From assembly GCA_019313905.1 (NCBI GenBank), contig JAFDAI010000005.1, forward strand, positions 2,997 through 66,996: a DNA stretch of 64,000 nucleotides, in the 5' to 3' direction. This document shows positions 29,069 through 42,728 of this stretch, piece by piece. The notes under the pieces were generated by a model, which worked only from the letters and a program-made list of their open reading frames with translations, searched no databases and had not been told where the DNA came from. The position numbers and the translations under genes are program-made. The first letter of the stretch is position 1, and every line of letters begins with the position of its first letter. The DNA comes from Deltaproteobacteria bacterium (GTDB lineage Bacteria; Desulfobacterota; Syntrophia; Syntrophales; UBA2210).

Positions 29069-29102
29069 AAAAAAAGGGAGGCGAACAGGCCGCCTCCCTT
29101 TT
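29069..29102 (-). terminator. Rho-independent terminator after pilA
   Basis: AAAAGGGAGGCG / CGCCTCCCTTTT perfect stem with U-tract. Confidence 0.8.
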
Positions 29103-29175: not shown

Positions 29176-29562
29176 TCAGCCCCCTTTGACAGCCGATGTA
29201 ATGGTGCCGTTTGCGTCAACCGAATAGACCAATGTGCCGTTGGCAGGCGTAGAGGTCATTACAAGGCCGGCCATGGTGCCCGTGGTAACCGCTGTAGTCA
29301 CATTGGCACTTGCCTTGAAACCGTTAGTCTGCAGGAGAGCTAAAGTTACAGTCCCTGTTGGATTTTCCGCAAAGTATGCCTGTGCCGCCGTGTAGGCATT
29401 TTTTACATCCGAGTTTGCCTGTGCGTTGAAACCCTTTGCCCTGTACGCCGAAAACTGCGGGATGGCGATTGCCGCCAGGATACCAATAATCGCGATGACG
29501 ATCATCAGTTCAATCAGTGTAAAACCCTTTTGTCCTTTTCTTCCGTTTAATTTCATCAACAT
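29176..29562 (-). CDS. pilA: Type IVa major pilin, Geobacter/Syntrophus-like
   Basis: Basic leader ...KGQKG|FTLIELMIVIAIIGILAAIAIPQFSAYR; monocistronic with RBS, sigma54 site and terminator. Confidence 0.93.
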   Translation of the reverse strand: MLMKLNGRKGQKGFTLIELMIVIAIIGILAAIAIPQFSAYRAKGFNAQANSDVKNAYTAAQAYFAENPTGTVTLALLQTNGFKASANVTTAVTTGTMAGLVMTSTPANGTLVYSVDANGTITSAVKGG

Positions 29563-29908: not shown

Positions 29909-31519
29909 TCAAAAATAGATTGCAGGCCTTAACAGCAGGGGGGCTCCGATGTTGCCCAGATCTATGATGAAATGGCACACTACGCATGGAACAATGCTTT
30001 CATTTTTCTCCTTAATCAACCCCAGAAGCATCCCGTACAAAAAGGCAAACGAGGCAAACTGCAGGCCGCCTATAAAATAATGTGGAAGGGCATAGACCGC
30101 GCTTTGTATGACATTAACAAAAAGTGTCGACCTGACGAATTTCCTGAGGAGTTCAAAAAGAGTAAGCCTGTAGAAAATTTCCTCGCTGAACGCGTTCAGC
30201 AGGCTGAGAATGATAACGGGCAACCAGACGGCCGTCCTTGAACTATCCACGGGATTTCTCATGAGCAGATACATTGAATACCAGGAGCTGATGATAATTC
30301 CGACAAAAAATACATTTGAAAATTTTTTCCAGGCAAACTGTTTCACAAATGGAATCCTTGCCCATTTGAGCCACAAAAGGGACAACCATGCCAGGATAAA
30401 CAGCGGCAGGTAAGTCATTATACTGGCATACACCGTGGCCAATCTGGCGGAACCGGTAAATGGCCACCTGACATAACCGCGGCTGACCAGATACAAAACA
30501 GCACCCATGAAAACAAACATGCAAACCAGATATGAAACCAGTGGAAAATACCGGTTCATCCGCGATCTCAGCAATAAATTACGGGGCTTATGCTCCGTTT
30601 TGATTCCAGATGGCAACGGGCCTAAAAGGACTTCCGAAGAAGGCGCCAAATATCGCGGGTTTTTTTGTGTGAGCAGCAGGATAAGAGTGCCCGTCATTAT
30701 AAAAATGAGCATGATGAGCTGAGGCTGGGTGAGACCGAATGCCTCTATCCTGTTCGTTCTGATAAATTCCATAAGGAACCTGACAGTACCATACAGAACC
30801 AGGTATCCCCCTACTACCCCACCCTTATTTCGTATAAGACCAAAGGGCCACGCGAGCCACTCGCGAATCCGTATGAAAAGGCCTGCCTGATCAGACAAGA
30901 CCCCGGATGCCACTTTTTGAACAACCCCACCTATGTAAATTCGGTTGTAAATCCGGCTTAAAATAAAAAATATGGTCAGATTGGCCAGGATTGCGTAAAG
31001 GGGGACAGGATTTGTAAAGGAGAAGTGGCTGCCAAAGACAGTGAAGCTGAGGGGTTTTCCCCAGCAGCAGCCAGCGGATAAACATCCCAGCCTACCGATC
31101 GCGTGCGCCAGGGGCACGTGCATAAAAGCCATGTCAACGACGCGCATCTCAGCAAACCGGAAAAGAACTGTTAGAAGGAAAAAAAAGGCCACAGGCAGAA
31201 TCAGACTGGCGTGGAAGGTGTGAAGGGTACCGGAGGTAATTTGGGTGTAAAACAGTTCCAGGCTCCAGCTTTTCAAAGGATAGTGCAAAATGCCCCCCGC
31301 CCTGCTGCTTATATAACCGAGGGGGAAAAAGAAGAGGGCCATCATAAGGACGAAAGAGGTAACCTTTCGCTTCGGATAGCCCGCCTGCAACATCCTTCTG
31401 TAAAAGAAAAAAGAAGCGGTAAAGATGCCGAGCAGGATAAAAAAATAGTAAACCGCGTTTACGATCGAGAGGACCTGGTGATAATCAAAAAGATACCGCT
31501 GAAGGACAAACTTGAGCAC
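29909..31519 (-). CDS. Fusion of an Lgt-like diacylglyceryl transferase domain and a CPBP (type II CAAX/Abi) intramembrane protease
   Basis: N-half: TFHAS, IGRLGCLSAGCCWG, YGTVRFLMEFIR; C-half: SEEIFYR, YALPH, CHFIID. Confidence 0.8.
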   Translation of the reverse strand: MLKFVLQRYLFDYHQVLSIVNAVYYFFILLGIFTASFFFYRRMLQAGYPKRKVTSFVLMMALFFFPLGYISSRAGGILHYPLKSWSLELFYTQITSGTLHTFHASLILPVAFFFLLTVLFRFAEMRVVDMAFMHVPLAHAIGRLGCLSAGCCWGKPLSFTVFGSHFSFTNPVPLYAILANLTIFFILSRIYNRIYIGGVVQKVASGVLSDQAGLFIRIREWLAWPFGLIRNKGGVVGGYLVLYGTVRFLMEFIRTNRIEAFGLTQPQLIMLIFIMTGTLILLLTQKNPRYLAPSSEVLLGPLPSGIKTEHKPRNLLLRSRMNRYFPLVSYLVCMFVFMGAVLYLVSRGYVRWPFTGSARLATVYASIMTYLPLFILAWLSLLWLKWARIPFVKQFAWKKFSNVFFVGIIISSWYSMYLLMRNPVDSSRTAVWLPVIILSLLNAFSEEIFYRLTLFELLRKFVRSTLFVNVIQSAVYALPHYFIGGLQFASFAFLYGMLLGLIKEKNESIVPCVVCHFIIDLGNIGAPLLLRPAIYF

Positions 31520-31697
31520 ACAAAGACCTCTTTAGGAATCAAGAATAAATAAGTTATACAGATTGCGCCGTAATTCTGTTTGTTTTCAAGGCGTGTTGAA
31601 GCGCACATAACGAGTTATGTAAGCTTTGGCACAACACAGAAAACAAGCAAAAGGACAAGCAGGGTGTATGAGTTATTTATGCTTGCTGACTTAGTAC

Positions 31698-31729
31698 AAA
31701 AAAGTCCCGGCCGGACCGGGACCCTTTTT
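31698..31729. terminator. Hairpin terminator after the 1078-aa pilin-like gene
   Basis: GTCCCGG / CCGGGAC stem flanked by A6 and T5 tracts. Confidence 0.6.
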
Positions 31730-31762
31730 ATCCGCCAGAGACGGAAAATAGTTTATGATTAT

Positions 31763-34700
31763 CTACTGGGCCATTATTCCCGGAAATGCCACCGCACCCC
31801 CTACTCCCTGAATAAATCTCCAGGCAAAGTCGTCAAAATAGACGGTTTCTCTGTCATCAACCTGAATATCGGCATTTGCGTTGATACCGAGGGTGTGCGC
31901 ACCGAACTCCGGGATGTCCTGTGTGTTGAAATTATAGTCTTCAGTCGTGAATGTTGGCGAATATACTATCGTCGGGTTACCACCACCGTCATAGCCGATT
32001 TCCACCAGCTTGTGAGTAACCGCTCCACACCCGAGGATGGAGTGAGTGATCGTTTTACTGGTATAGGCCTTCTTTTTATCGGCAAGTCCTCTTCCCCAGA
32101 TGACCTGGGTGAAATAATCACCTTGATCGGGCCACTTGATAATGCCCCTGTCCAACTTCTTTCTGTTCAGATCGGTCGAAGATGCGTTACCGAAAGATGT
32201 ACCGACATCGTTGTCGGGACTTGCGAAAAAGGCGGTCAGGGCATTCACTCTTTGCTCGGGGTTATCAGGATTACAATCGGACACCATCTCGTAGATGTTC
32301 ACCATAATGGTAATCCATTCCCTGGGATATATTCGATAGTTGTAAATCGCCTTGTCCGTCTGATTGGTGGTGGCGGGAGGCCTGATGTAACCCACAGGGC
32401 CACTCGCCCCTCCGGCAACCGGTTTCCCGATCGGGTCCTCCTCGCTTACGGTAGCCGGGTCCCTCACCACTTCCGCCCCGGGAAGCCCGAGCACTGTAAT
32501 ATCCTCTACCTCATAAGTTTTGAAAAGGCCGTAGATATCGGTGATCTTCCAGACCAGTATCGGCGTTCCTCCGCTTCCTTCATAAATGACCTCGACGTTT
32601 TGGGTCCCGTCCCAAACAGTTTCATAGTACACATATACCTCTTCGTGGCCCACCAGGGGCGCGTATGCCATCCGTTCCCAGGGAGAATAGGAGCCACACC
32701 CTCCCGAATCAGTGGCATCTTTCTGCCACAGGACGAGGTAGGGAATTCCATCAAATGGAGGGGTATCGTCCCAGTGGCTTTCCTGGAAACCCTCGCAATT
32801 GACAGGATCCGCAACCGTTGTCGAACCATGATCGTCATAGATTGAGTCGGGGATATCGTCGTTTTCAGTGTAATAAGTTTCCTCGCCGCACCCAGACCCT
32901 TCGACATGCTCGGCCCTGCCCTGTATGCCTCTCATGATGGAGAGCCCGTAGTAGGAATATCCACTGTCGCCAGAAACCAGTTTAACCCTGAAGGACAACC
33001 CGGGCATGTAGTTTCCCGGATGGTTCAACGGATCAGTTTCTGAAAGATCGTCTTCCACGTCTGTAAAGCGGATCTTGGTCTGGAGATCATATCTGAGTTT
33101 CTGTTCCGATTCATTCCACAGGGTCTGCAATGGATTGGTACCGGAACCCCAGTCAACAGCGCCCAGGCTTTCCTCCATATAGACATCTTCAGGCACAAAA
33201 GCTGAGATGACCTGTTCGGTTCCGGTCACCTTTATGGCCATGTCTCCATCAATCTCTTCTCCGGCGTGTGACCCGATTATGGATCTGACATTGTCAGGGG
33301 TCATCTCACCCTCAATAGTTCTGTAAAGTTCCATCACGCTCAGGGGTTGAAAAAGGGTTATGGACCTCGAAACCGAATCGCTCCCCATATTGACCGTCCC
33401 TGTTGAGGTGAACCTGGCAAACTCATTAAATGTCATGACCGTCTGGTCAGTTAGCGAACGGGTAAAGGGGGGAACACCCGGGGGACAGTGCAAACCGGTG
33501 AGTCTCCCGTTGTCTGTATCCAGATAATCGTACTGCAAGAAAAGCTCGGTGCCTTCCGGAGTCACTATGGTAAAAGTCCCCTGTACCCTGGGCAAAATTG
33601 TCAGATTGCCACTTATAGCGAGGTTGCTTGTCGATTGCGCTCCACAACTCGCGGGAGAGATTGTCTGATCACCGTTTACCTTCGCAGCCGGGTATACGGG
33701 GGCATTATCCACGGGAGTGCCGCTGGCGCTCGTACTCAAAGTAAATGTAACGGAAGAGCCGTCTACCGAGTAACCGGAATATGGCACGGTTTCATATGTT
33801 GAACCGGATGCATCGGGCACCGCGACGCGCAGGTCTCCGCTTTCAGTACCGGCTCCCGCGACAAAGTTGGAGGGTAAATTTACGGTCCCGATACCGCCAG
33901 GAGGTGTGACAACAAGGCTGTTGACCGTGGAATTCACGCTTAAAGACTCCTCAAACCAGTTCAGCTCCATGCTGAGCCTGAATTGATCGTTGTCCACAGG
34001 GATGGATTGATTCAGGAATAAGGAATCCATAAGATCCTGTCGATTGATGTTGAAATTGGCATCCCTGTGTTCCACGACCCTGCTGACCGCGTAATTCAGC
34101 CCGGATTGTGCCAGGTACTGGGCCTTTTGCGCATATGCAAACCTGATCGTGCCCGTGCTGGAAGAGCTGAAAAGGGAGACCATGGCGGCCCCCAGAATAC
34201 CTATGATGACTATTGTCACGATCACCCCTATAAGTATGGAGCCTGATCGACCCACAGGCAGGTAAAGTTTCAGGCCTTCAAACGTTCCGTGCCTTTTGAG
34301 CAACATGAAGAGTATCCAGCCGAGAAGGATAATCATGATCAGACCGGCTTTGTGGCACCAGGTAGCAGTCATCGTTCCCCTATCCTCAAATCCGGCTATA
34401 GCCACAAAACATCCGGGGGTTGTGGTCCCGGTACTTCCCGTTGGAACTGAGTAGCCGCTAAAGCCCTGCGGGACATAGACGTTTGAGGGCAAAATCTCGT
34501 CCACAAAAGTCATGCTTGTTCCTTCCGATGCGCTCAAACTCATTGAGATGCCTATGCGGGAAAGATCGCTGAGCCTGTCCGAGATCGACCAGGCATTCCT
34601 TGAATAATCGAGGTAGGTCAAGGAAAATGCCGACACATTGTCAGCCAATGTAAAGAAATTGCTGTAACCGTCGTAATCGCTGCTTTTAACCTGAAGTGTG

Positions 34701-34999
34701 TTCCCCGACAATCGAAAGGTTTCATCTATAAGTCTTCCATCCGGGCTCCGTCTTTCAATGGTGATCGTGCCAGTCCCCGCCGCGCTGATGGAAGTGAGAT
34801 TCTGCAGAGACATCCTCAAACGGGTCATGGCCAGCTGATTTGTCTGCGTAAGCGCGGCTGAATCCTTGGCGAAAAGGAAGGCATTGGTCATCTGGACAAT
34901 TCCAAGGCCGGCTACGGCTGACATGACAGAAACGATAAGCAAGGACACGATTATCTCGATAAGAGTAAAACCTTTATTTTTTCTGAACGGCATTTGCAT
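31763..34999 (-). CDS. 1078-aa pilin-like protein: PilW/PulJ-like pilin, GCF-TM segment, PilX-like pilin and large acidic extracellular domain
   Basis: N-terminal KNKG|FTLIE; PGCFVAIAG at Cys197 followed by a TM helix and KRH; second prepilin-like site GRSG|SILIGVIVTIVIIGILGAAM at Gly253 and AQKAQYLAQSGLNYA. Confidence 0.8.
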   Translation of the reverse strand: MQMPFRKNKGFTLIEIIVSLLIVSVMSAVAGLGIVQMTNAFLFAKDSAALTQTNQLAMTRLRMSLQNLTSISAAGTGTITIERRSPDGRLIDETFRLSGNTLQVKSSDYDGYSNFFTLADNVSAFSLTYLDYSRNAWSISDRLSDLSRIGISMSLSASEGTSMTFVDEILPSNVYVPQGFSGYSVPTGSTGTTTPGCFVAIAGFEDRGTMTATWCHKAGLIMIILLGWILFMLLKRHGTFEGLKLYLPVGRSGSILIGVIVTIVIIGILGAAMVSLFSSSSTGTIRFAYAQKAQYLAQSGLNYAVSRVVEHRDANFNINRQDLMDSLFLNQSIPVDNDQFRLSMELNWFEESLSVNSTVNSLVVTPPGGIGTVNLPSNFVAGAGTESGDLRVAVPDASGSTYETVPYSGYSVDGSSVTFTLSTSASGTPVDNAPVYPAAKVNGDQTISPASCGAQSTSNLAISGNLTILPRVQGTFTIVTPEGTELFLQYDYLDTDNGRLTGLHCPPGVPPFTRSLTDQTVMTFNEFARFTSTGTVNMGSDSVSRSITLFQPLSVMELYRTIEGEMTPDNVRSIIGSHAGEEIDGDMAIKVTGTEQVISAFVPEDVYMEESLGAVDWGSGTNPLQTLWNESEQKLRYDLQTKIRFTDVEDDLSETDPLNHPGNYMPGLSFRVKLVSGDSGYSYYGLSIMRGIQGRAEHVEGSGCGEETYYTENDDIPDSIYDDHGSTTVADPVNCEGFQESHWDDTPPFDGIPYLVLWQKDATDSGGCGSYSPWERMAYAPLVGHEEVYVYYETVWDGTQNVEVIYEGSGGTPILVWKITDIYGLFKTYEVEDITVLGLPGAEVVRDPATVSEEDPIGKPVAGGASGPVGYIRPPATTNQTDKAIYNYRIYPREWITIMVNIYEMVSDCNPDNPEQRVNALTAFFASPDNDVGTSFGNASSTDLNRKKLDRGIIKWPDQGDYFTQVIWGRGLADKKKAYTSKTITHSILGCGAVTHKLVEIGYDGGGNPTIVYSPTFTTEDYNFNTQDIPEFGAHTLGINANADIQVDDRETVYFDDFAWRFIQGVGGAVAFPGIMAQ

Positions 35000-35025: not shown

Positions 35026-35442
35026 CTATATTTCAATGCTTCCAAACAACAGTGCGTAGGTCAGACCGGATGACCCGGTTATAGTAACTTTTAAAAGGTC
35101 ACTGGAACTCCCCTCAACAGGAGTCCCGCCAGATCCGTAACCTGTTGCACCGGCTGTAACGGATATTCCTATTCCAGAGGCAGTGACATCGAAAAGTCCG
35201 CCGGTTATATTAGTTTGTAAGTCACTGATGCTGCCCAGTTCCCGGTATGCCCGCGAAATACTATCGGCCACCTGGTTCATGGCATGAACTTCCATGGTCT
35301 GAATCGCAGGCTGGGTGCTCCGGGTGAACACTCCACCCATCATTGAGACCAACATGGCCCCCAATATCGAGGTGATAATCAATGTCACGATTACTTCCAA
35401 CAAGGTAAAGCCTTCATGATTTCCCAATACTTCAGTTTTCAT
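35026..35442 (-). CDS. Minor pilin (PilV/PulI-like)
   Basis: HEG|FTLLEVIVTLIITSILG. Confidence 0.85.
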   Translation of the reverse strand: MKTEVLGNHEGFTLLEVIVTLIITSILGAMLVSMMGGVFTRSTQPAIQTMEVHAMNQVADSISRAYRELGSISDLQTNITGGLFDVTASGIGISVTAGATGYGSGGTPVEGSSSDLLKVTITGSSGLTYALLFGSIEI

Positions 35443-35963
35443 AATATAAATCCTGTATACGGAGTAATGTTGATAGCTCTTAACTCTAACCCTTCAGAGA
35501 CGTTTATGGGTGCGGCTGCTGTCAATCTCACGGTCGCACCGGCGTCCGTACAGGGAGACCCCCAATTTTCAAAGGAATATGTAAAGTCGGAAACCGAAAG
35601 ACCATATCCGGCAAGATCGACATCGAGATCATCCTCACCTGGCAGCTGTTTTTTTGTATTTATATTTCCACCAGTAAAGAGCCAGTACTTGTTCTGGAAA
35701 GAGTGAATCCCCCACACGTCATTTGAACTCATGCTCTTCATCTGGGCGTATCGCAGATGAGACTTCAGGATTTCCGTTCGTGCCACCAGTTCCGAATGAT
35801 GATCTGTAGCTCTCACCGCGACAAACGCGGAGACTATTCCAATCAAGACCAAAACAGCGATTACCTCTATCAAAGTAAATCCTGATTTATTTGTCCTTTT
35901 GCCTGGACCGGAACTATTTTTAATCATTGTTGCCCCTTTTCTGTTGAGGTCTTTAGCCGACAT
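35439..35963 (-). CDS. Minor pilin (FimT/GspH-like)
   Basis: NKSG|FTLIEVIAVLVLIG...LKSHLRYAQMKSM; start may be at 35927. Confidence 0.85.
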   Translation of the reverse strand: MSAKDLNRKGATMIKNSSGPGKRTNKSGFTLIEVIAVLVLIGIVSAFVAVRATDHHSELVARTEILKSHLRYAQMKSMSSNDVWGIHSFQNKYWLFTGGNINTKKQLPGEDDLDVDLAGYGLSVSDFTYSFENWGSPCTDAGATVRLTAAAPINVSEGLELRAINITPYTGFIL

Positions 35964-36543
35964 TACAGGAATATCTCTCCATCGTATAAGTGAGAAAACC
36001 TCCTATAATAATGCTGCCGATCGTGAGCGGCAGCAACGCAAAGGTCACAATTGGAATTCTCAAATCTATCTGAAGAATTACACTATTGATGATGATTACT
36101 CCTACATATAAAAATATGCCGAACTTGGCCGATCTGACCGATACCGGCCGACCTGAAACAAAGGATATGCCCAAAAGAGCAAAACCGATCGCGATTGCAA
36201 AAGAAAACTCCGGCTGATACAGTAACCAGATTGCCTGATAACTGGCACTGCTGATGGTTTCCAGGCTCCGCGAGAAAACGATTCCCACTACAAGATAAAA
36301 AAGGCTTACGAGGATAAAGTAGAAACCGCACTGGCTCTTCGTGATGCTTTCCGGAAATAACCTGAACCCTTTTAAATCGCGGGGCCGCACAAGAAAGTTA
36401 CGGATCCTGTTAACTGTTCCATATCGCACCGGACGCAGCCCGATCCGGGCCATAACCCGGTCGGCAAAATCATCGGGTGGCTGTACCGGAGACACCTCTT
36501 TTATCATATCCATGATGGCTTTGTTTTTGATTTTATCTCCCAT
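35953..36543 (-). CDS. Putative membrane anti-sigma factor (about 4 TM)
   Basis: PVQPPDDFADRVMARI then hydrophobic helices; directly downstream of the ECF sigma gene. Confidence 0.65.
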   Translation of the reverse strand: MGDKIKNKAIMDMIKEVSPVQPPDDFADRVMARIGLRPVRYGTVNRIRNFLVRPRDLKGFRLFPESITKSQCGFYFILVSLFYLVVGIVFSRSLETISSASYQAIWLLYQPEFSFAIAIGFALLGISFVSGRPVSVRSAKFGIFLYVGVIIINSVILQIDLRIPIVTFALLPLTIGSIIIGGFLTYTMERYSCNVG

Positions 36544-36782: not shown

Positions 36783-37355
36783 TTACAACCTTTTATCCGG
36801 CTCACCGGACTGTTCCTCCATCAATTCCCGCAGTTTTTCCAGCCCCCGGTACGCCCTCATCTTCGCGGCACTCAGAGAAAGCCCTGATATTTCGGCAACT
36901 TCTTCAAATGAAAGTTCCTGATAGAATCTCAGCACCACAGCCTCTTTCAGGTTATCCGAAAGCCTGTGCAGGCACATATTCAGATGACATACCCTCTGTT
37001 CGCGAATCAGAGAGTGCTCGGGGTTGGAAGGATTATCTCGCGAGAGAAGATCAGTATCCTCTGTAAAGTCACGCAAAAATACCTTTTTCCTCTTCTTCAA
37101 GTGATTCCGGACGAGATTCAATCCTATCGTATAGAGCCAGGTAAAAAACTTCTTTCCCTGATCGAAACGCCCGAGATTCTCAAACGCCTTTACAAATGTC
37201 TCCTGCGCGAGATCGCTCGCGTCCTCATAGGATCCCGTCATGCGGTAAGCAAGGTTAAATATCGGCGCCTTGTATGTATCCACCAGCAGGGCATAGGAAT
37301 GACGATCCCCCTCAAGGACGCATCTTATGATGTCAATCTCTTTTTTTTCTTCCAT
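36783..37355 (-). CDS. ECF RNA polymerase sigma factor
   Basis: DASDLAQETFVKA, FFTWLYTI (region 2); LSFEEVAEISGLSLSAAKMRAYRG (region 4). Confidence 0.92.
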   Translation of the reverse strand: MEEKKEIDIIRCVLEGDRHSYALLVDTYKAPIFNLAYRMTGSYEDASDLAQETFVKAFENLGRFDQGKKFFTWLYTIGLNLVRNHLKKRKKVFLRDFTEDTDLLSRDNPSNPEHSLIREQRVCHLNMCLHRLSDNLKEAVVLRFYQELSFEEVAEISGLSLSAAKMRAYRGLEKLRELMEEQSGEPDKRL

Positions 37356-37541: not shown

Positions 37542-37823
37542 TTAAGCTTCTATCCGTTTTTTGATGAGACTGTAAACTTCTTTTCGATGGATTATACCGA
37601 GAATTAAAATATCGTCACCGGAAACTTTAAAAACAACACGGTAATCTCCGACTCTTAACTTCCAGTATCCCTTAAGGGTTCTTTGCAACGGTTTCCCATA
37701 GGCTTCAGGTTGCGTGGCAAGCCGATCTTCTATGGCTCTTTTGATCATACCCCTGTTTTTAACATCAATTTTCGGCAGGTCAGATCTCTTGACATCCGGA
37801 TGGTATTTGAGTTTGTATGCCAT
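37542..37823 (-). CDS. RelE/ParE family toxin
   Basis: YGKPLQRTLKGYWKLRVGDYRVVF...IIHRKEVY. Confidence 0.9.
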   Translation of the reverse strand: MAYKLKYHPDVKRSDLPKIDVKNRGMIKRAIEDRLATQPEAYGKPLQRTLKGYWKLRVGDYRVVFKVSGDDILILGIIHRKEVYSLIKKRIEA

Positions 37824-37846
37824 TGCCTTTTCACAAGAGCTGAGCT

Positions 37847-38074
37847 TTAAGACCATACATCATCATGGCTTAGCGCCTTAGAGTCATTCCATGATTTTTC
37901 CCTTTTTTCGGCAAATCCGGAAAGGGCGATATCCTCTTGAATCTCCATGGCCTCTTTGAGCAAATCTCTGACCTTAGCGGACAATGAAACATTATCCTTC
38001 TCTGCCAGAAGTCGGACATCATGGTAAAGTAAATTGTTCAGGACTACATTTATACGTGGATTTTGAGCCGGCAT
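37847..38074 (-). CDS. Antitoxin (RHH/RelB-like)
   Basis: MPAQNPRINVVL...SLSAKVRDLLKEA...LSHDDVW; immediately upstream of the toxin. Confidence 0.85.
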   Translation of the reverse strand: MPAQNPRINVVLNNLLYHDVRLLAEKDNVSLSAKVRDLLKEAMEIQEDIALSGFAEKREKSWNDSKALSHDDVWS

Positions 38075-38310
38075 GATCTTTTCCTCCGAATAAAATTGAG
38101 AATAAGTGTAACAGTGGTGACACACCATGTCAAATTAAAAAATAGGTGGGGTCAGACCCCATGACCCAACTGGAATATTGTCAAGACAATTTTCCATAGT
38201 TATAGAATATTGTCGATAGAGGAGTTAAGTGACCAGCTATTAGCGGAGAAACAGTAGATTCTCGTACCAAACATGGCTTCGAAATGCGCCGTATCCCCAC
38301 TTTTTCCTAA

Positions 38311-39417: not shown

Positions 39418-40575
39418 GTGCTGTCTAAAAAGAATAACCTGCTTGTAACCACATCTACTTTCTGGAGATGGAAGGGTGATGTAATCCCCTCGTTTGTATA
39501 TGATCTAAGCAAACGTTTGGCAAAAGATTTTGATATTTGGGTGCTGGCTCCACATTCCAGGGGAGCGGCAATATCCGAACAATTGGACGGATTAAATATC
39601 TTCAGATACAAGTATTATTTTAACAAATATCAATACTTGGGTGAGAAAGCAATCCTTCCTAATTTAAGAAGAAATCCCTTTTTATGGCTACAGGTACCCT
39701 TTTTTCTTATTGCGCAATTACTTGCAATCAAAAAAATAGCGAAAAAACATAACATTTACCTTATACATGCTCATTGGATAATACCACAGGGGATCATAGC
39801 TGTTTTATATAAATTCTTCTTCAATAGAAATGTTAAGATAGTTGTTACAAGCCACGGAACTTTGAACAATATTGACCGCCTGACTGTTGTCAGTTCGGCT
39901 ATAAAAGATGAAGTTGTGTCTTTAGGAATAAACAGAAATCTGCCTATTGATGTCGTACCGATGGGTGTTGATTTCTCACTCTTCAGTCCGGAACATTTTA
40001 ACGAAAGCATAAAGAAAAAATATTCTATTAATGGCCCTTTTCTTCTTTTTGTAGGACGACTCTCTGAAAAAAAAGGCATTGAATATTTAATCAAGGCTAT
40101 GCCCTCCATTCTCCTTGATTTTCCGGAGACAAAGCTGTTGATAATCGGCGAAGGAGAAAAAGAGTTTGATCTCAAGTCTCTTTCAGAAAAATTAAACCTA
40201 ATGGATAAATCGGTTATTTTTGCGGGTGCAATATCAAATGAGAATCTTCCTCAATATTATGCTACAGCGGATATTTTTATTAATCCCTCCTATTCTGAAG
40301 GATTCGGCCTTGTTTTTGTTGAAGCTATTGGTAGTGGGACCTACACAATTGGTACGGATTTGCCTGCCATATCAGATATTATAAAAGAAGGGAAAACGGG
40401 GTTCATAGTAAAACAGAAAGATTCAGAACAGATTGCGGATAAGGTTAAATTCATTCTTTCAAACAAATCGAAACTCATAAATATAAAGCACAAGGCCAGG
40501 AAAATAATAATTAAGAAGTTTGATTGGAATATTATTTCTAAAATATATAAACAAATATTAGCGTGTGTTAAATGA
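39418..40575 (+). CDS. GT4 glycosyltransferase (apparent short in-frame deletion)
   Basis: HAHWIIPQG, FVGRLSEKKG, EGFGLVFVEA. Confidence 0.88.
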   Translation: MLSKKNNLLVTTSTFWRWKGDVIPSFVYDLSKRLAKDFDIWVLAPHSRGAAISEQLDGLNIFRYKYYFNKYQYLGEKAILPNLRRNPFLWLQVPFFLIAQLLAIKKIAKKHNIYLIHAHWIIPQGIIAVLYKFFFNRNVKIVVTSHGTLNNIDRLTVVSSAIKDEVVSLGINRNLPIDVVPMGVDFSLFSPEHFNESIKKKYSINGPFLLFVGRLSEKKGIEYLIKAMPSILLDFPETKLLIIGEGEKEFDLKSLSEKLNLMDKSVIFAGAISNENLPQYYATADIFINPSYSEGFGLVFVEAIGSGTYTIGTDLPAISDIIKEGKTGFIVKQKDSEQIADKVKFILSNKSKLINIKHKARKIIIKKFDWNIISKIYKQILACVK

Positions 40576-40842
40576 GTTGCAATAATGTTTTCCGCAGAAA
40601 GGGAGAGCGGGGTTGAAGTCGTATAGAAACAATTTTTTGATTGATCGCATAAAAAACCCCTTAAAGCGATTTTATTGTCATGAAATACAAGGTTTCTCTT
40701 GAGTTTTCCGTCAATGCAAAACAGCAAAGAAGATTATCACAGACAAATTTTACTAAAGTGTAACATCGAATGACAGCGAGTTTTCTGTGTGCTGATTTTA
40801 AAAAGGAAAAGCTGAAATCAATTTTTCGGATAAGGTGGTAAT

Positions 40843-41724
40843 ATGAAAATAGAATATCAACTGATTAAAGATGGATTAATGATTATGAAAAGGTTTGGAA
40901 TACGACATGCCATACGAAGAACAAAAGACTTAATTCTAGTTAAAAAAGAAGAGAAAAGAAGGGCTAAGCTATATAATAAGATTAAGCCTGAGGGAACAAT
41001 AATAAGAGAAATTATCGGCAGTAAGATGAAGCTGGATATGAGTGACCAGGGAATACATAGGGATTTGTTTCTAGATGGCATACGGGAACCGGTTGCAACA
41101 AAACATTTAATGGGTGTTCTGACAAAAAACGATGTGGTGTTGGATATAGGAGCAAATATAGGCTATTACACCCTCCTGGAAGCCAAACTATGTAAGAAGG
41201 TTTATGCCGTTGAACCAGTCCTAAGTAATGTGGTTGTTCTCAAAGACAACATAAAGTTAAATCATTATAACAATGTGGAAGTTTCTAGTTTGGCCTTTGG
41301 TAAAGCCACAGGGATAGAAAAGATGTACTTGTCGCCAAAGAGTAATTGGCATAGCTTTTACCCGATAAAAAATATGGTTGGAGAAGCGAAAATCAACGTT
41401 GACACCGTTGATAATTTTCTTAAAGACAGAGAAGATCCAACAATCGTAAGGATGGACGTTGAAGGATACGAATTGAACATATTGTATGGCATGACAGAGA
41501 CTTTAAAAAAGATAGATAGATTATTCATGGAAATCCACGCTGATATAATGAGTCTGGAAGATACGAAAAGATTGATTGAGATATTAAACAGTGAAGGTTT
41601 CTTCCCGGAACTGATTATAAAATATGACAGACCAGGTCTAAGCAGGATCTTGCCTGACGATTATATTGGCAAAATTTATAAGGGAGATAAAGGTGGATAC
41701 GAGGTTTTTTTCAGAAAAAAATAA
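40843..41724 (+). CDS. FkbM family methyltransferase
   Basis: VLDIGANIGYYT, YAVEP, RMDVEGYE. Confidence 0.9.
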   Translation: MKIEYQLIKDGLMIMKRFGIRHAIRRTKDLILVKKEEKRRAKLYNKIKPEGTIIREIIGSKMKLDMSDQGIHRDLFLDGIREPVATKHLMGVLTKNDVVLDIGANIGYYTLLEAKLCKKVYAVEPVLSNVVVLKDNIKLNHYNNVEVSSLAFGKATGIEKMYLSPKSNWHSFYPIKNMVGEAKINVDTVDNFLKDREDPTIVRMDVEGYELNILYGMTETLKKIDRLFMEIHADIMSLEDTKRLIEILNSEGFFPELIIKYDRPGLSRILPDDYIGKIYKGDKGGYEVFFRKK

Positions 41725-41732
41725 ATAGTCGT

Positions 41733-42728
41733 TTGAAATTCAACCCCCTATGCCATTCCAATCTATATAAGAAAGTTGATATGAGAAAAAAACGCATATG
41801 GCCTCTTATCACAATAGTATCTATTGCGGCCTTAATAATAATATATATCTATCATCACCCTTATTCCCTTGAACCTTTTAAAGATGTTAGTCCCTCTATC
41901 CTCATTTGTTTAATAATCAGCAGAATTTTGTTCCAAATAACAAACGGGCTTATATTGCGAGAAGTTGCATCCAAGTTTAATATAGTACTGACTATAAAGG
42001 AATGGTTTGGTCTTCCCTTTGTTACAGCCATGGGGAATTATATAACGCCCTTTTCCGGTGGTATGATTGCCCGGGCATCATATCTGAAGTACCGCCATAA
42101 TTTCTCTTATGCGCAGTTTGTATCGGTTCTTGGAGCAAGCTTCCTGATATTCTTCTGGATAGCCGGCATGACAGGCATAATTACTCTTATATTGTCTCTT
42201 GAGAGGTCAGCGATCTACTGGCAGTTAATTTTCTTTTTTGGAGCGGTTGTCCTAAGCATTTCAATGGTCGCCATTCTCCCTTCTGTAAAGCTGCCCGGCA
42301 ATAACAGACTGTCAACACTTATAAATAACTCACTTGAAGGATGGGATTTCATAAAAAGCGACCTGTTTCTTTTAACCAAACTCGCCCTGTATACACTTGC
42401 AAACATTTTTATAAACGGGATCTCCTTCTGGCTGGCATTTGTTGCACTGTATGGAACTTCTTTATCAGTTGGAAAGGCTTTTCTAATCAGCCTGTTTTCG
42501 ACCTTTTCCATTCTTGTGAGAATAACGCCTGGCAATTTAGGGGTTTTTGAGAGTATTGTCAGCCTTAGCTCTGGAATTTTAGGGGTTGGCGTTAGCCCTG
42601 GTTTAATGGTATCCCTGCTCATCAGGGCGGCTTCCATGATTCCTATCTTCACCCTGGGCCCGATCTTCAGTTTTGTGCTTACACGTGAATTAGCGGGTAA
42701 TAAAAGAAGAAATGACGATGATAACTAA
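41733..42728 (+). CDS. Flippase-like membrane protein (lysylphosphatidylglycerol synthase TM / YbhN family)
   Basis: Multi-TM; NYITPFSGG..ARASYLK; ITPGNLGVFE; start possibly MRKKRIW at 41781. Confidence 0.8.
   Translation: MKFNPLCHSNLYKKVDMRKKRIWPLITIVSIAALIIIYIYHHPYSLEPFKDVSPSILICLIISRILFQITNGLILREVASKFNIVLTIKEWFGLPFVTAMGNYITPFSGGMIARASYLKYRHNFSYAQFVSVLGASFLIFFWIAGMTGIITLILSLERSAIYWQLIFFFGAVVLSISMVAILPSVKLPGNNRLSTLINNSLEGWDFIKSDLFLLTKLALYTLANIFINGISFWLAFVALYGTSLSVGKAFLISLFSTFSILVRITPGNLGVFESIVSLSSGILGVGVSPGLMVSLLIRAASMIPIFTLGPIFSFVLTRELAGNKRRNDDDN

Follow-up and report, generated by a model that had tools for sequence, protein, structure and literature searches.

How can two type IV pilins be made as a single chain, and which enzyme would separate and mature them? 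These questions are raised by a locus in a 64,000-nucleotide stretch of DNA from a Syntrophales bacterium (assembly GCA_019313905.1, contig JAFDAI010000005.1, positions 2,997 to 66,996; hereafter the window), in which the gene for a 1078-amino-acid (aa) two-in-one minor-pilin precursor is followed on the same strand by the gene for a 536-aa enzyme that fuses an Lgt-like domain to a CPBP/Rce1-like protease domain (Lgt::CPBP). A possible answer, which we favour tentatively, is that the 1078-aa protein is a polyprotein-like precursor of two minor pilins, joined by a CFI-box-CTERM domain and matured by prepilin peptidase together with the adjacent Lgt::CPBP. Domain architecture and conservation, intact catalytic motifs and a clade-specific synteny were observed directly; the cuts, the lipid and the pairing of enzyme and substrate are proposed on this basis.

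The embedded sorting signal of a two-in-one pilin

The product of the open reading frame (ORF) at 31763-34999 begins with MQMPFRKNKG|FTLIE, and its residues 6-30 match both type IV prepilin models (TIGR02532, 25.1 bits against a cut-off of 16.3; N_methyl PF07963, 30.8 bits against 21.2). The first pilin module runs into a linker, VPTGSTGTTTPG (residues 185-196, 34412-34447), which is followed by GCFVAIAG with Cys197. After this cysteine there is one hydrophobic stretch only (residues ~218-235; mean Kyte-Doolittle hydropathy 1.6-2.1 in a 19-residue window), which starts 21 residues on, behind a spacer of ~20 residues. KRH (residues 236-238) opens a basic loop (236-253, with K236, R237, H238, K244 and R251) that ends in Gly253 (34241-34243); SILIGVIVTIVIIGILGAAMVSLF, with a hydropathy of up to 2.9, and then ~800 further residues complete the protein. 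A residue and coordinate check of the ORF thus bore out the layout of linker, CFVAIAG with Cys197, spacer, transmembrane helix, KRH and Gly253 that an earlier, sequence-only reading of this DNA had described. The succession of linker, Cys-Phe-Ile/Val, hydrophobic span and basic cluster is the one seen in 13 canonical CFI-box-CTERM examples. Here the signal is internal, at residues 197-238 of 1078, and not at the extreme C-terminus that characterizes CFI-box-CTERM proteins; only a cut at Gly253 would turn it into a C-terminal signal.

When residues 1-330 served as the query of a homologue search, 70 long proteins were retrieved (592-1887 aa searched). The sequence-only reading had made its proposal depend on the conservation of Cys197, and a cysteine stands at the equivalent place in all 70, mostly within GCFVATAAY. 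Among 25 diverse members, 23-77% identical to the window protein, the Cys, the Phe and the Gly before the second helix are invariant columns (C195/F196 and G251 in the numbering of the alignment on P0035, corresponding to C197, F198 and G253). Because this conservation extends over homologues and does not come from a single sequence, the motif is more than a chance resemblance; and because the Cys197 equivalent is the sole invariant Cys of the alignment, a conserved disulfide is unlikely.

The likening of CFVAIA to the CFI box has also held up. NCBIfam model NF041770 (CFI_box_CTERM) is matched by 19 of the 25 members at E<=0.001 (best 4.4e-23), and the pilin of a syntenic locus, L008, matches it along all 69 profile positions with 55.5 bits, against a cut-off of 40. 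The window's own segment gave a different result: in 65-aa and 104-aa pieces it matched 0 families of NCBIfam and Pfam at E<=10, so that the scan with CFI, JDVT and MYXO models that had been proposed for it was negative, and no protein of the window's own genome lies above the NF041770 cut-off. The CFI-box identity therefore rests on the homologues. The window copy is one of the short forms, which lack ~60 residues between Cys motif and transmembrane helix. A script parsed 67 of the 70 homologues: the distance from Cys to Gly is 113-119 aa in 53 of them (long forms) and 50-72 aa in the other 14 (short forms), and throughout these 67 sequences the 25 residues before the Gly hold 2-7 Lys or Arg and 0-2 Asp or Glu. 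In ordinary CFI-box-CTERM proteins of the same phylum (n=13) the domain does lie at the C-terminus, its Cys 102-123 aa before the stop. As these spacings agree, the start of pilin 2 in the long forms coincides exactly with the usual end of a CFI-box protein. The Cys is also kept in 6/6 parsed junctions of more distant fused pilins, even with Phe replaced by Met and the middle part gone; 5 further proteins of this group fell outside the parsing pattern. Taken at the level of sequence comparison, the GCFVAIAG segment is well supported as a shortened, otherwise complete CFI-box-CTERM domain that probably acts as a sorting signal.

By the same alignments the 1078-aa protein is a member of a conserved family. 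Fused pilins occur in 9 of the 401 genomes of our phylum sample, and in one order 25 of 121 genomes have strong matches to the pilin profile, many of them in open frames of fused length. A single search gave 70 clusters, which makes the fused minor pilins a sizeable and apparently undescribed family. An assembly or frameshift artefact that joined two adjacent genes might be suspected in a 171-contig assembly with 5% contamination; given a like open frame in the 70 database clusters and, within the phylum sample, in 8 genomes besides this one (9 in all), this explanation is so improbable that we reject it.

That the two halves represent two pilins is indicated by other genomes, in which they are separate, adjacent genes (G003, G008 and nine further loci). 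There, the unfused module-1 pilin has 160-200 aa and stops soon after a conserved ...NPRN... motif, with no Cys tail, and the module-2 gene follows directly, opening with a short leader, a Gly and then a like hydrophobic helix. A Cys tail is likewise missing from 20 of 21 short database matches to module 1, the 21st being probably cut at a contig end. No stand-alone pilin 1 with a C-terminal CFI tail was found among the unfused loci and the short database matches, some of which may be contig-truncated; in this pilin family, the CFI tail was seen in fused proteins only. Homologues of the large module 2 carry MAM/jelly-roll Pfam domains, and module 2 therefore looks like an adhesin-type tip subunit; a Pfam scan of the window's own module 2 gave no match. 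No PilW or PilX model was matched by the fused-pilin halves, and we speak of a PilW position (small half) and a PilX position (large half) as labels by place only, which we take to be the places of PilW and PilX in textbook operons.

Joining the periplasmic C-terminus of one pilin to the cytoplasmic leader of the next needs one membrane crossing, which the CFI-box domain would supply. The resulting topology would comprise an N-in helix, a periplasmic pilin 1, an out-to-in signal helix, a cytoplasmic basic loop and an in-to-out pilin-2 helix. Could the segment be a topological connector and nothing else, with an optional PilD cut and a Cys that is not lipidated? We consider this quite unlikely. 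A connector role would be in keeping with the confinement of the signal to fused forms and the missing stand-alone pilin 1 with a CFI tail, with the transmembrane crossing that any such fusion requires and with the repeated loss of the middle part of the CFI box, but it is opposed by a Cys that is invariant, and a Phe that is nearly so, across 23-77% identity, by the retention of this Cys in all parsed junctions of very divergent short forms, and by the exact domain-length spacing. In a processed precursor, prepilin peptidase probably still cuts at the internal Gly, as suggested by the invariance of this residue, the basic loop before it and the domain-length spacing. The earlier proposal that a cut at Gly253 makes the signal C-terminal fits both the invariant Gly and the spacing in the long forms, the cut itself being deduced from them, and a gene for a prepilin peptidase (Peptidase_A24, 87.8 bits) is present in the genome.

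The Lgt::CPBP enzyme and a proposed maturation pathway

Past a hairpin, the next gene on the same strand does encode an Lgt-CPBP fusion, as had been noticed from the sequence, with both domains intact and above their Pfam cut-offs (LGT PF01790, 76.1 bits against 24.9; Rce1-like PF02517, 55.7 bits against 22.4). The fusion is well below the equivalog model of the housekeeping Lgt (NF000778, 40.5 vs 334 bits), and the genome has a separate canonical Lgt (240.6 bits). Both domains were found together in 32 database clusters, whose source names suggest metagenome bins of Desulfobacterota and Spirochaetota and which all lack a specific family name. In a FastTree phylogeny of Lgt domains, fused and split copies form one clade apart from the canonical Lgts; the split copies (L006, L007 and L171) encode the Lgt and CPBP parts as separate abutting or overlapping ORFs and fall within this fusion clade.

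Across 17 aligned fusion sequences, H103, D129, R143, G154, Y243, R247, E251 and R254 of the Lgt domain are invariant. When aligned to E. coli Lgt (5azb), the invariant positions include the equivalents of its H103, R143, G154, Y235, R239 and E243, which we take to be the catalytic or otherwise essential residues. CPBP proteins are defined by the motifs EExxxR, FxxxH and HxxxN/D, and E446, E447, R451, H480, H516 and D520 of the second domain are invariant in the same 17 sequences. An AlphaFold2 model of the enzyme (mean predicted local distance difference test score, pLDDT, 78.4) had two meaningful PDB matches only in Foldseek: E. coli Lgt (5azb; E 1.3e-4, probability 1.00, TM-score normalized to the target 0.57) and MmRce1 (4cad; probability 0.97, target TM-score 0.51). 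The linker between the domains (residues 287-313) is basic and of low pLDDT, and was taken as cytoplasmic for helix counting.

Some observations on related enzymes stand apart from the question of function. Housekeeping Lgt has two motif types, GRxGNFxNGELxG and GRxGCFxAGCCxG (loci L011-L030, L097-L108 and L147-L158); many genomes have the second type as their sole or high-scoring Lgt, and at L028 it is found shortly after an ORF that, by eye, is LspA-like. The fusion enzyme has Cys residues at the positions of E. coli N146 and E151. The idea that they signify a special Lgt chemistry was rejected, since in many genomes GCxxxGCCxG is present in Lgts that score highly, are the only copy or adjoin LspA. 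Beside Lgt::CPBP genes, a recurrent neighbour is a membrane protein of ~900-1140 aa with LVYE/LIYE..W.R near its N-terminus (L001, L003, L009, L010, L169 and L170); at the four Spirochaete loci its gene comes immediately before them on the same strand, and the C-terminal end of the protein consists of repeats resembling tetratricopeptide repeats. We presume that these proteins are the ones named fused MFS (major facilitator superfamily)/spermidine synthase.

The pathway that we envisage starts with a small pilin (PilW position) and a large adhesin-like pilin (PilX position) made as one chain through the CFI-box domain, whose transmembrane helix would make such a pilin-pilin fusion topologically possible. 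Prepilin peptidase would cut after Gly10 and after the internal Gly253, and the second cut would free pilin 2 and leave pilin 1 tethered by a Cys-type signal that is now C-terminal. The active site of E. coli Lgt faces the periplasmic leaflet; on this face, the Lgt domain could attach diacylglycerol to Cys197 through a thioether. The CPBP domain would then remove the transmembrane anchor, so that pilin 1 could depart from the membrane together with the tip complex. Most other genomes that encode such pilins would have to rely for these steps on unlinked, probably housekeeping, enzymes. A more far-reaching claim, to which we give less credence, is that Lgt::CPBP is a one-polypeptide maturation enzyme for 'C-terminal lipoproteins', which lipidates the CFI-box Cys and clips the anchor, its substrate being a pilin polyprotein cut internally by prepilin peptidase, and which thereby gives a minor pilin that carries a lipid tag and sits at the tip or base of the pilus; this is possible, though on the unlikely side. 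A lipidated minor pilin might be kept at the inner membrane up to the moment of priming, or be tethered to the outer membrane. A lipid tag on the pilus tip that inserts into partner cells is pure speculation.

A function unrelated to C-terminal sorting, such as that of an alternative Lgt which, with a CPBP partner, works on N-terminal lipoboxes, or more generally of a lipoprotein- or lipid-remodelling enzyme, appears to us very unlikely. The CPBP-like LnsB of Staphylococcus lipoprotein N-acylation offers a precedent for it (available part of PMC7387801), and the lipid-related PAP2 neighbour in another lineage and a lipobox-like ORF near the Spirochaete copies (by eye) also speak in its favour. 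LnsB, however, lacks the CPBP catalytic motifs according to the same part of PMC7387801, whereas EE..R, H and H...D are invariant here, and a canonical Lgt is encoded elsewhere in the genome.

Linkage of pilin and enzyme

Is Lgt::CPBP, then, the enzyme of the fused pilin? A like order of two small pilins, a fused CFI pilin and the enzyme recurs in L008, whose enzyme is 38% identical to that of the window and separated from the pilin by an 11-nucleotide gap, so that adjacency spans enzyme identities from 100% down to 38%. In four closer relatives, the longest contigs of the pilin and enzyme clusters are equal in size (5985, 6058, 181350 and 19914), which is suggestive of a shared contig, as judged from equal sizes only. 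In G376 and G050, a PAP2 gene and then a divergent 280-aa Lgt (Pfam 77.1 bits) lie directly after the fused pilin; in the Lgt-domain tree this Lgt is on a branch separate from the fusion clade. G003 and G008, which have the enzyme and unfused pilins, keep the enzyme apart from the pilin operons.

The window's genome holds two CFI-like signals only, one in the 1078-aa pilin and one in a secreted protein of contig C136; this is the pattern expected for a dedicated sorting enzyme. The C136 protein (G000:C136:25405-27129, minus strand; locus L268 3409-5052) is of ~510-550 aa and ends in DDDDDSCCFIATASG, one transmembrane helix and RGKKVW. Part of it matches NF053835, 'PDIAV motif-containing lipoprotein', with 47.6 bits (cut-off 90). 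By its tail, it is a candidate second substrate of Lgt::CPBP. On another contig, C165 (L081 619-2094 and 2-676; L265), a 491-aa polytopic protein weakly matches positions 19-44 of the CFI-box profile (18.2 bits), and its gene directly adjoins that of a 225-aa CPBP protease. Like weak matches occur in 496-557-aa frames of 5 of the 10 other Lgt::CPBP genomes (G003, G005, G006, G007 and G008).

A considerable set of observations weighs against a dedicated enzyme, or against parts of the proposed pathway. Of the ~19 loci whose downstream flank could be seen, 4 have an Lgt-type gene adjoining the fused pilin. Since the Lgt-domain tree places the window and L008 clades as sisters, adjacency of fusion and pilin counts as one event, or two with G376/G050. 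Nothing relevant was seen downstream of the pilin at five other fused-pilin loci of the phylum sample (a sixth, G332, stops at a contig edge) or at 12 further loci from the order of G376, apart from a single 260-aa Lgt, 4.8 kb off and on the other strand. The sequence-only reading had made co-occurrence of the two genes across genomes a test of its proposal, and they do not co-occur in general. Among the 401 phylum genomes, 1 (the window's own) was found to have the fusion, 9 have fused pilins and 98 have CFI-box proteins that exceed the cut-off; among the 10 other fusion-bearing genomes, NF041770 is exceeded in 1 and a fused pilin present in 1; and adjacency is found in one enzyme subclade only. 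A CF[IVM]ATA DNA pattern, which is strict and misses variants, gave out-of-context frames only in these 10 genomes. None of 5 metagenome fusion loci has a pilin within 6 kb, and in the MLS_D genome the fused pilin and the enzyme have distant locus tags, by source names. In the window itself, the 243 nucleotides between the two ORFs hold a hairpin with a T-run (31698-31722), which parts the genes.

Further points of this kind concern the proteins. The internal site at Gly253 reaches only E 0.85 with the N_methyl model and has no Glu5. The 21 residues from Cys197 to the transmembrane helix exceed the distance that we take to be usual in MYXO-type signals. The CPBP domain appears to be oriented as in MmRce1, by helix count, the positive-inside rule and the C-in topology presumed for Lgt, and a cut right beside a periplasmic Cys is therefore not self-evident. 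All Mrt models remain below cut-off (Mrt_core NF040914, MrtS, MrtJ and MrtP: 36.8/130, 31.1/75, 26.5/250 and 24.4/100 bits), and MrtJ gives 39.2 and 27.1 bits with two further CPBPs of the genome; as these score alike, we rejected the idea that the CPBP domain is specifically myxosortase-like.

Co-occurrence with Mrt_core is not decisive. CFI-positive genomes make up 12 of the 14 that exceed the Mrt cut-off in the phylum sample, and 25 of the 53 with a match at E<=1e-6; conversely, 78 of 103 CFI-positive genomes have no match at the latter threshold and 0 of 9 fused-pilin genomes are in the Mrt list, all tallies being counted by hand over related genomes that are not independent. As a separate observation, a fused CFI pilin is encoded in G028, a genome of 1.8 Mb with a listed completeness of 100%, in which PF01790 has no match at E<=0.001.

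These results bring up a further explanation, namely that the CFI signal is real and processed by unlinked machinery, a housekeeping Lgt and/or another CFI-box sorting enzyme, and that Lgt::CPBP serves other substrates, such as the C136 protein or ordinary lipoproteins, its adjacency to the pilin being a clade-specific accident. We regard this as somewhat unlikely, if by no means far-fetched. The disparity between 98, 9 and 1 genomes given above speaks for it, as do five fused-pilin genomes with canonical or no Lgt matches and nothing relevant downstream, the 12 further loci with no adjacent enzyme, the members of the enzyme family in non-pilin contexts and the hairpin between the genes. In addition, MrtX processed its substrate in E. 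coli, as stated in the available part of PMC11980579, which suggests that a housekeeping acyltransferase can suffice. It is countered by an adjacency that holds from 100% to 38% enzyme identity, with an 11-nucleotide gap in L008, by the independent Lgt paralogue beside the fused pilin in G376 and G050, and by an enzyme that in no case seen adjoins unfused pilin operons. For this clade, we find a pairing of enzyme and pilin plausible, with no general rule to be drawn from it; most CFI pilins must rely on unlinked enzymes. Of the sequence-only reading as a whole, the sorting signal has gained good support, while the dedicated enzyme is plausible as a clade-limited feature, judged from gene order and sequence.

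The surroundings of the two genes are summarized in Table 1. An equivalent sigma-factor gene also precedes the minor-pilin operon in L140 and L143, and the position of the 196-aa membrane protein is filled by ORFs of 168-204 aa in L140, L141, L143 and L144. Farther upstream, window positions 37542-38128 (minus strand) hold two small overlapping ORFs of 104 and 93 aa with the look of a RelE/ParE-type toxin and its antitoxin (by eye), and positions 40001-42000 have a G+C content of 0.344, against 0.43-0.52 elsewhere, and a reversed GC skew, possibly indicating foreign DNA.

Table 1. Features of the pilin-enzyme locus, with window coordinates and the evidence for each
Feature	Coordinates	Strand	Evidence or remark
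ECF-type (extracytoplasmic function) sigma factor	36783-37355	-	Pfam Sigma70_r2 66.9 bits, r4 43.2 bits; upstream of minor-pilin genes
196-aa membrane protein, possible anti-sigma factor	35953-36543	-	weak NCBIfam anti-sigmaE match, E 0.025
Minor pilin, GspH/FimU-like	35439-35963	-	TIGR02532 29.9 bits; Pfam N_methyl; GspH model 37 bits (below cut-off)
Second minor pilin (PilV position)	35026-35442	-	TIGR02532 22.7 bits, N_methyl 27.3 bits
1078-aa two-in-one minor-pilin precursor	31763-34999	-	70 long homologues of like layout
Pilin module 1 (residues 1-184), prepilin signal G10|FTLIE	34448-34999	-	TIGR02532 25.1 bits, N_methyl 30.8 bits
Low-complexity linker and Cys motif GCFVAIAG	34391-34447	-	Cys197 at 34409-34411; homologue conservation
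Single transmembrane helix of embedded signal (residues 218-235)	34295-34348	-	hydropathy scan
Basic loop KRH...GRSG ending in Gly253 (putative internal prepilin-peptidase site), presumably cytoplasmic	34241-34294	-	Gly invariant
Pilin module 2 (residues 254-1078): pilin-type hydrophobic helix without Glu5, large extracellular module	31766-34240	-	homology to stand-alone genes
Terminator-like hairpin and T-run between pilin and enzyme genes	31698-31722	-	7-bp GC-rich stem, then six T
536-aa Lgt::CPBP fusion enzyme	29909-31519	-	Pfam LGT and Rce1-like
Lgt-like domain (residues 1-290)	30650-31519	-	invariant catalytic residues; aligns to E. coli Lgt
CPBP/Rce1-like protease domain (residues 314-536)	29912-30580	-	invariant motif residues
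128-aa major-type pilin	29176-29562	-	TIGR02532 41.6 bits; PilA_Myxo model 63 bits (below cut-off)
Strong terminator after 128-aa pilin	29072-29102		

Comparison with known sorting and pilus systems

To our knowledge, no cognate enzyme of the CFI-box domain is known, and the literature that we searched contained no paper that names this domain or describes its function. The pilin signal shares with CFI-box-CTERM (NF041770) the Gly/Thr-rich linker, the Cys-Phe-Ile/Val motif, the hydrophobic span and the basic tail, and pilin homologues match the full-length model. It differs in being internal, with a second pilin in frame behind it, and in that the window copy lacks the ~60-aa middle and falls below the model. 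The fused-pilin family would imply an ability of prepilin peptidase to cut within a polypeptide, and a role of the CFI-box domain in pilus biogenesis.

The closest parallels on the enzyme side are MrtJ with JDVT-CTERM and MrtX with MYXO-CTERM, in which a Cys-containing tripartite signal likewise meets a CPBP-family intramembrane protease. MrtJ is encoded beside its single JDVT-CTERM target, and a two-step model of lipidation followed by cleavage has been proposed (10.1101/2023.06.07.544157; available part of PMC11980579). Unlike in the myxosortase systems, the CPBP domain here scores below all Mrt cut-offs, is fused to an Lgt domain and would have a type IV pilin as its target. According to the part of PMC11980579 (2025) available to us, the enzyme that lipidates the cysteine of Cys-type CTERM signals has not yet been identified, with Lgt as the leading but unproven candidate. 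The word 'Lgt' occurs 0 times in the myxosortase preprint (10.1101/2023.06.07.544157), and the available parts of PMC11980579 and of this preprint make no mention of a protease fused to an Lgt domain. In the literature that we covered, supplements excluded, we found no description of an Lgt-CPBP fusion or of fused or tandem pilins of this architecture. A natural fusion of an intact Lgt with an intact CPBP domain, encoded beside a protein with a Cys-type signal, provides a compact two-gene test system for the lipidation model; if the proposed pairing is true, it would be the missing genetic link indicating that Lgt-type enzymes lipidate Cys-type CTERM sorting signals.

An internal Cys-type CTERM signal has one forerunner in MXAN_5598 of Myxococcus xanthus, whose internal MYXO-CTERM is thought to stem from a gene fusion (available part of PMC11980579). 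In that part of the source MXAN_5598 is a single case, whereas the family described here numbers at least 70 clusters, and in it the signal is directly followed by a conserved Gly of the peptidase type. The Lgt-LspA pathway and eukaryotic CAAX processing, in which a prenyltransferase is followed by Rce1, resemble the proposed pathway in the order of events, a lipid on the Cys thiol and then membrane-embedded proteolysis, and in their homologous domains. They differ in that both activities reside in one polypeptide here and that the presumed substrate Cys lies N-terminal to the transmembrane helix, inverted with respect to a lipobox and 21 residues off. Finally, the locus resembles minor-pilin priming complexes and modular pilins in its four pilin-like genes, the last of them large and adhesin-like, upstream of a major pilin; what sets it apart from these priming complexes is the fusion of the third and fourth genes through a sorting domain.

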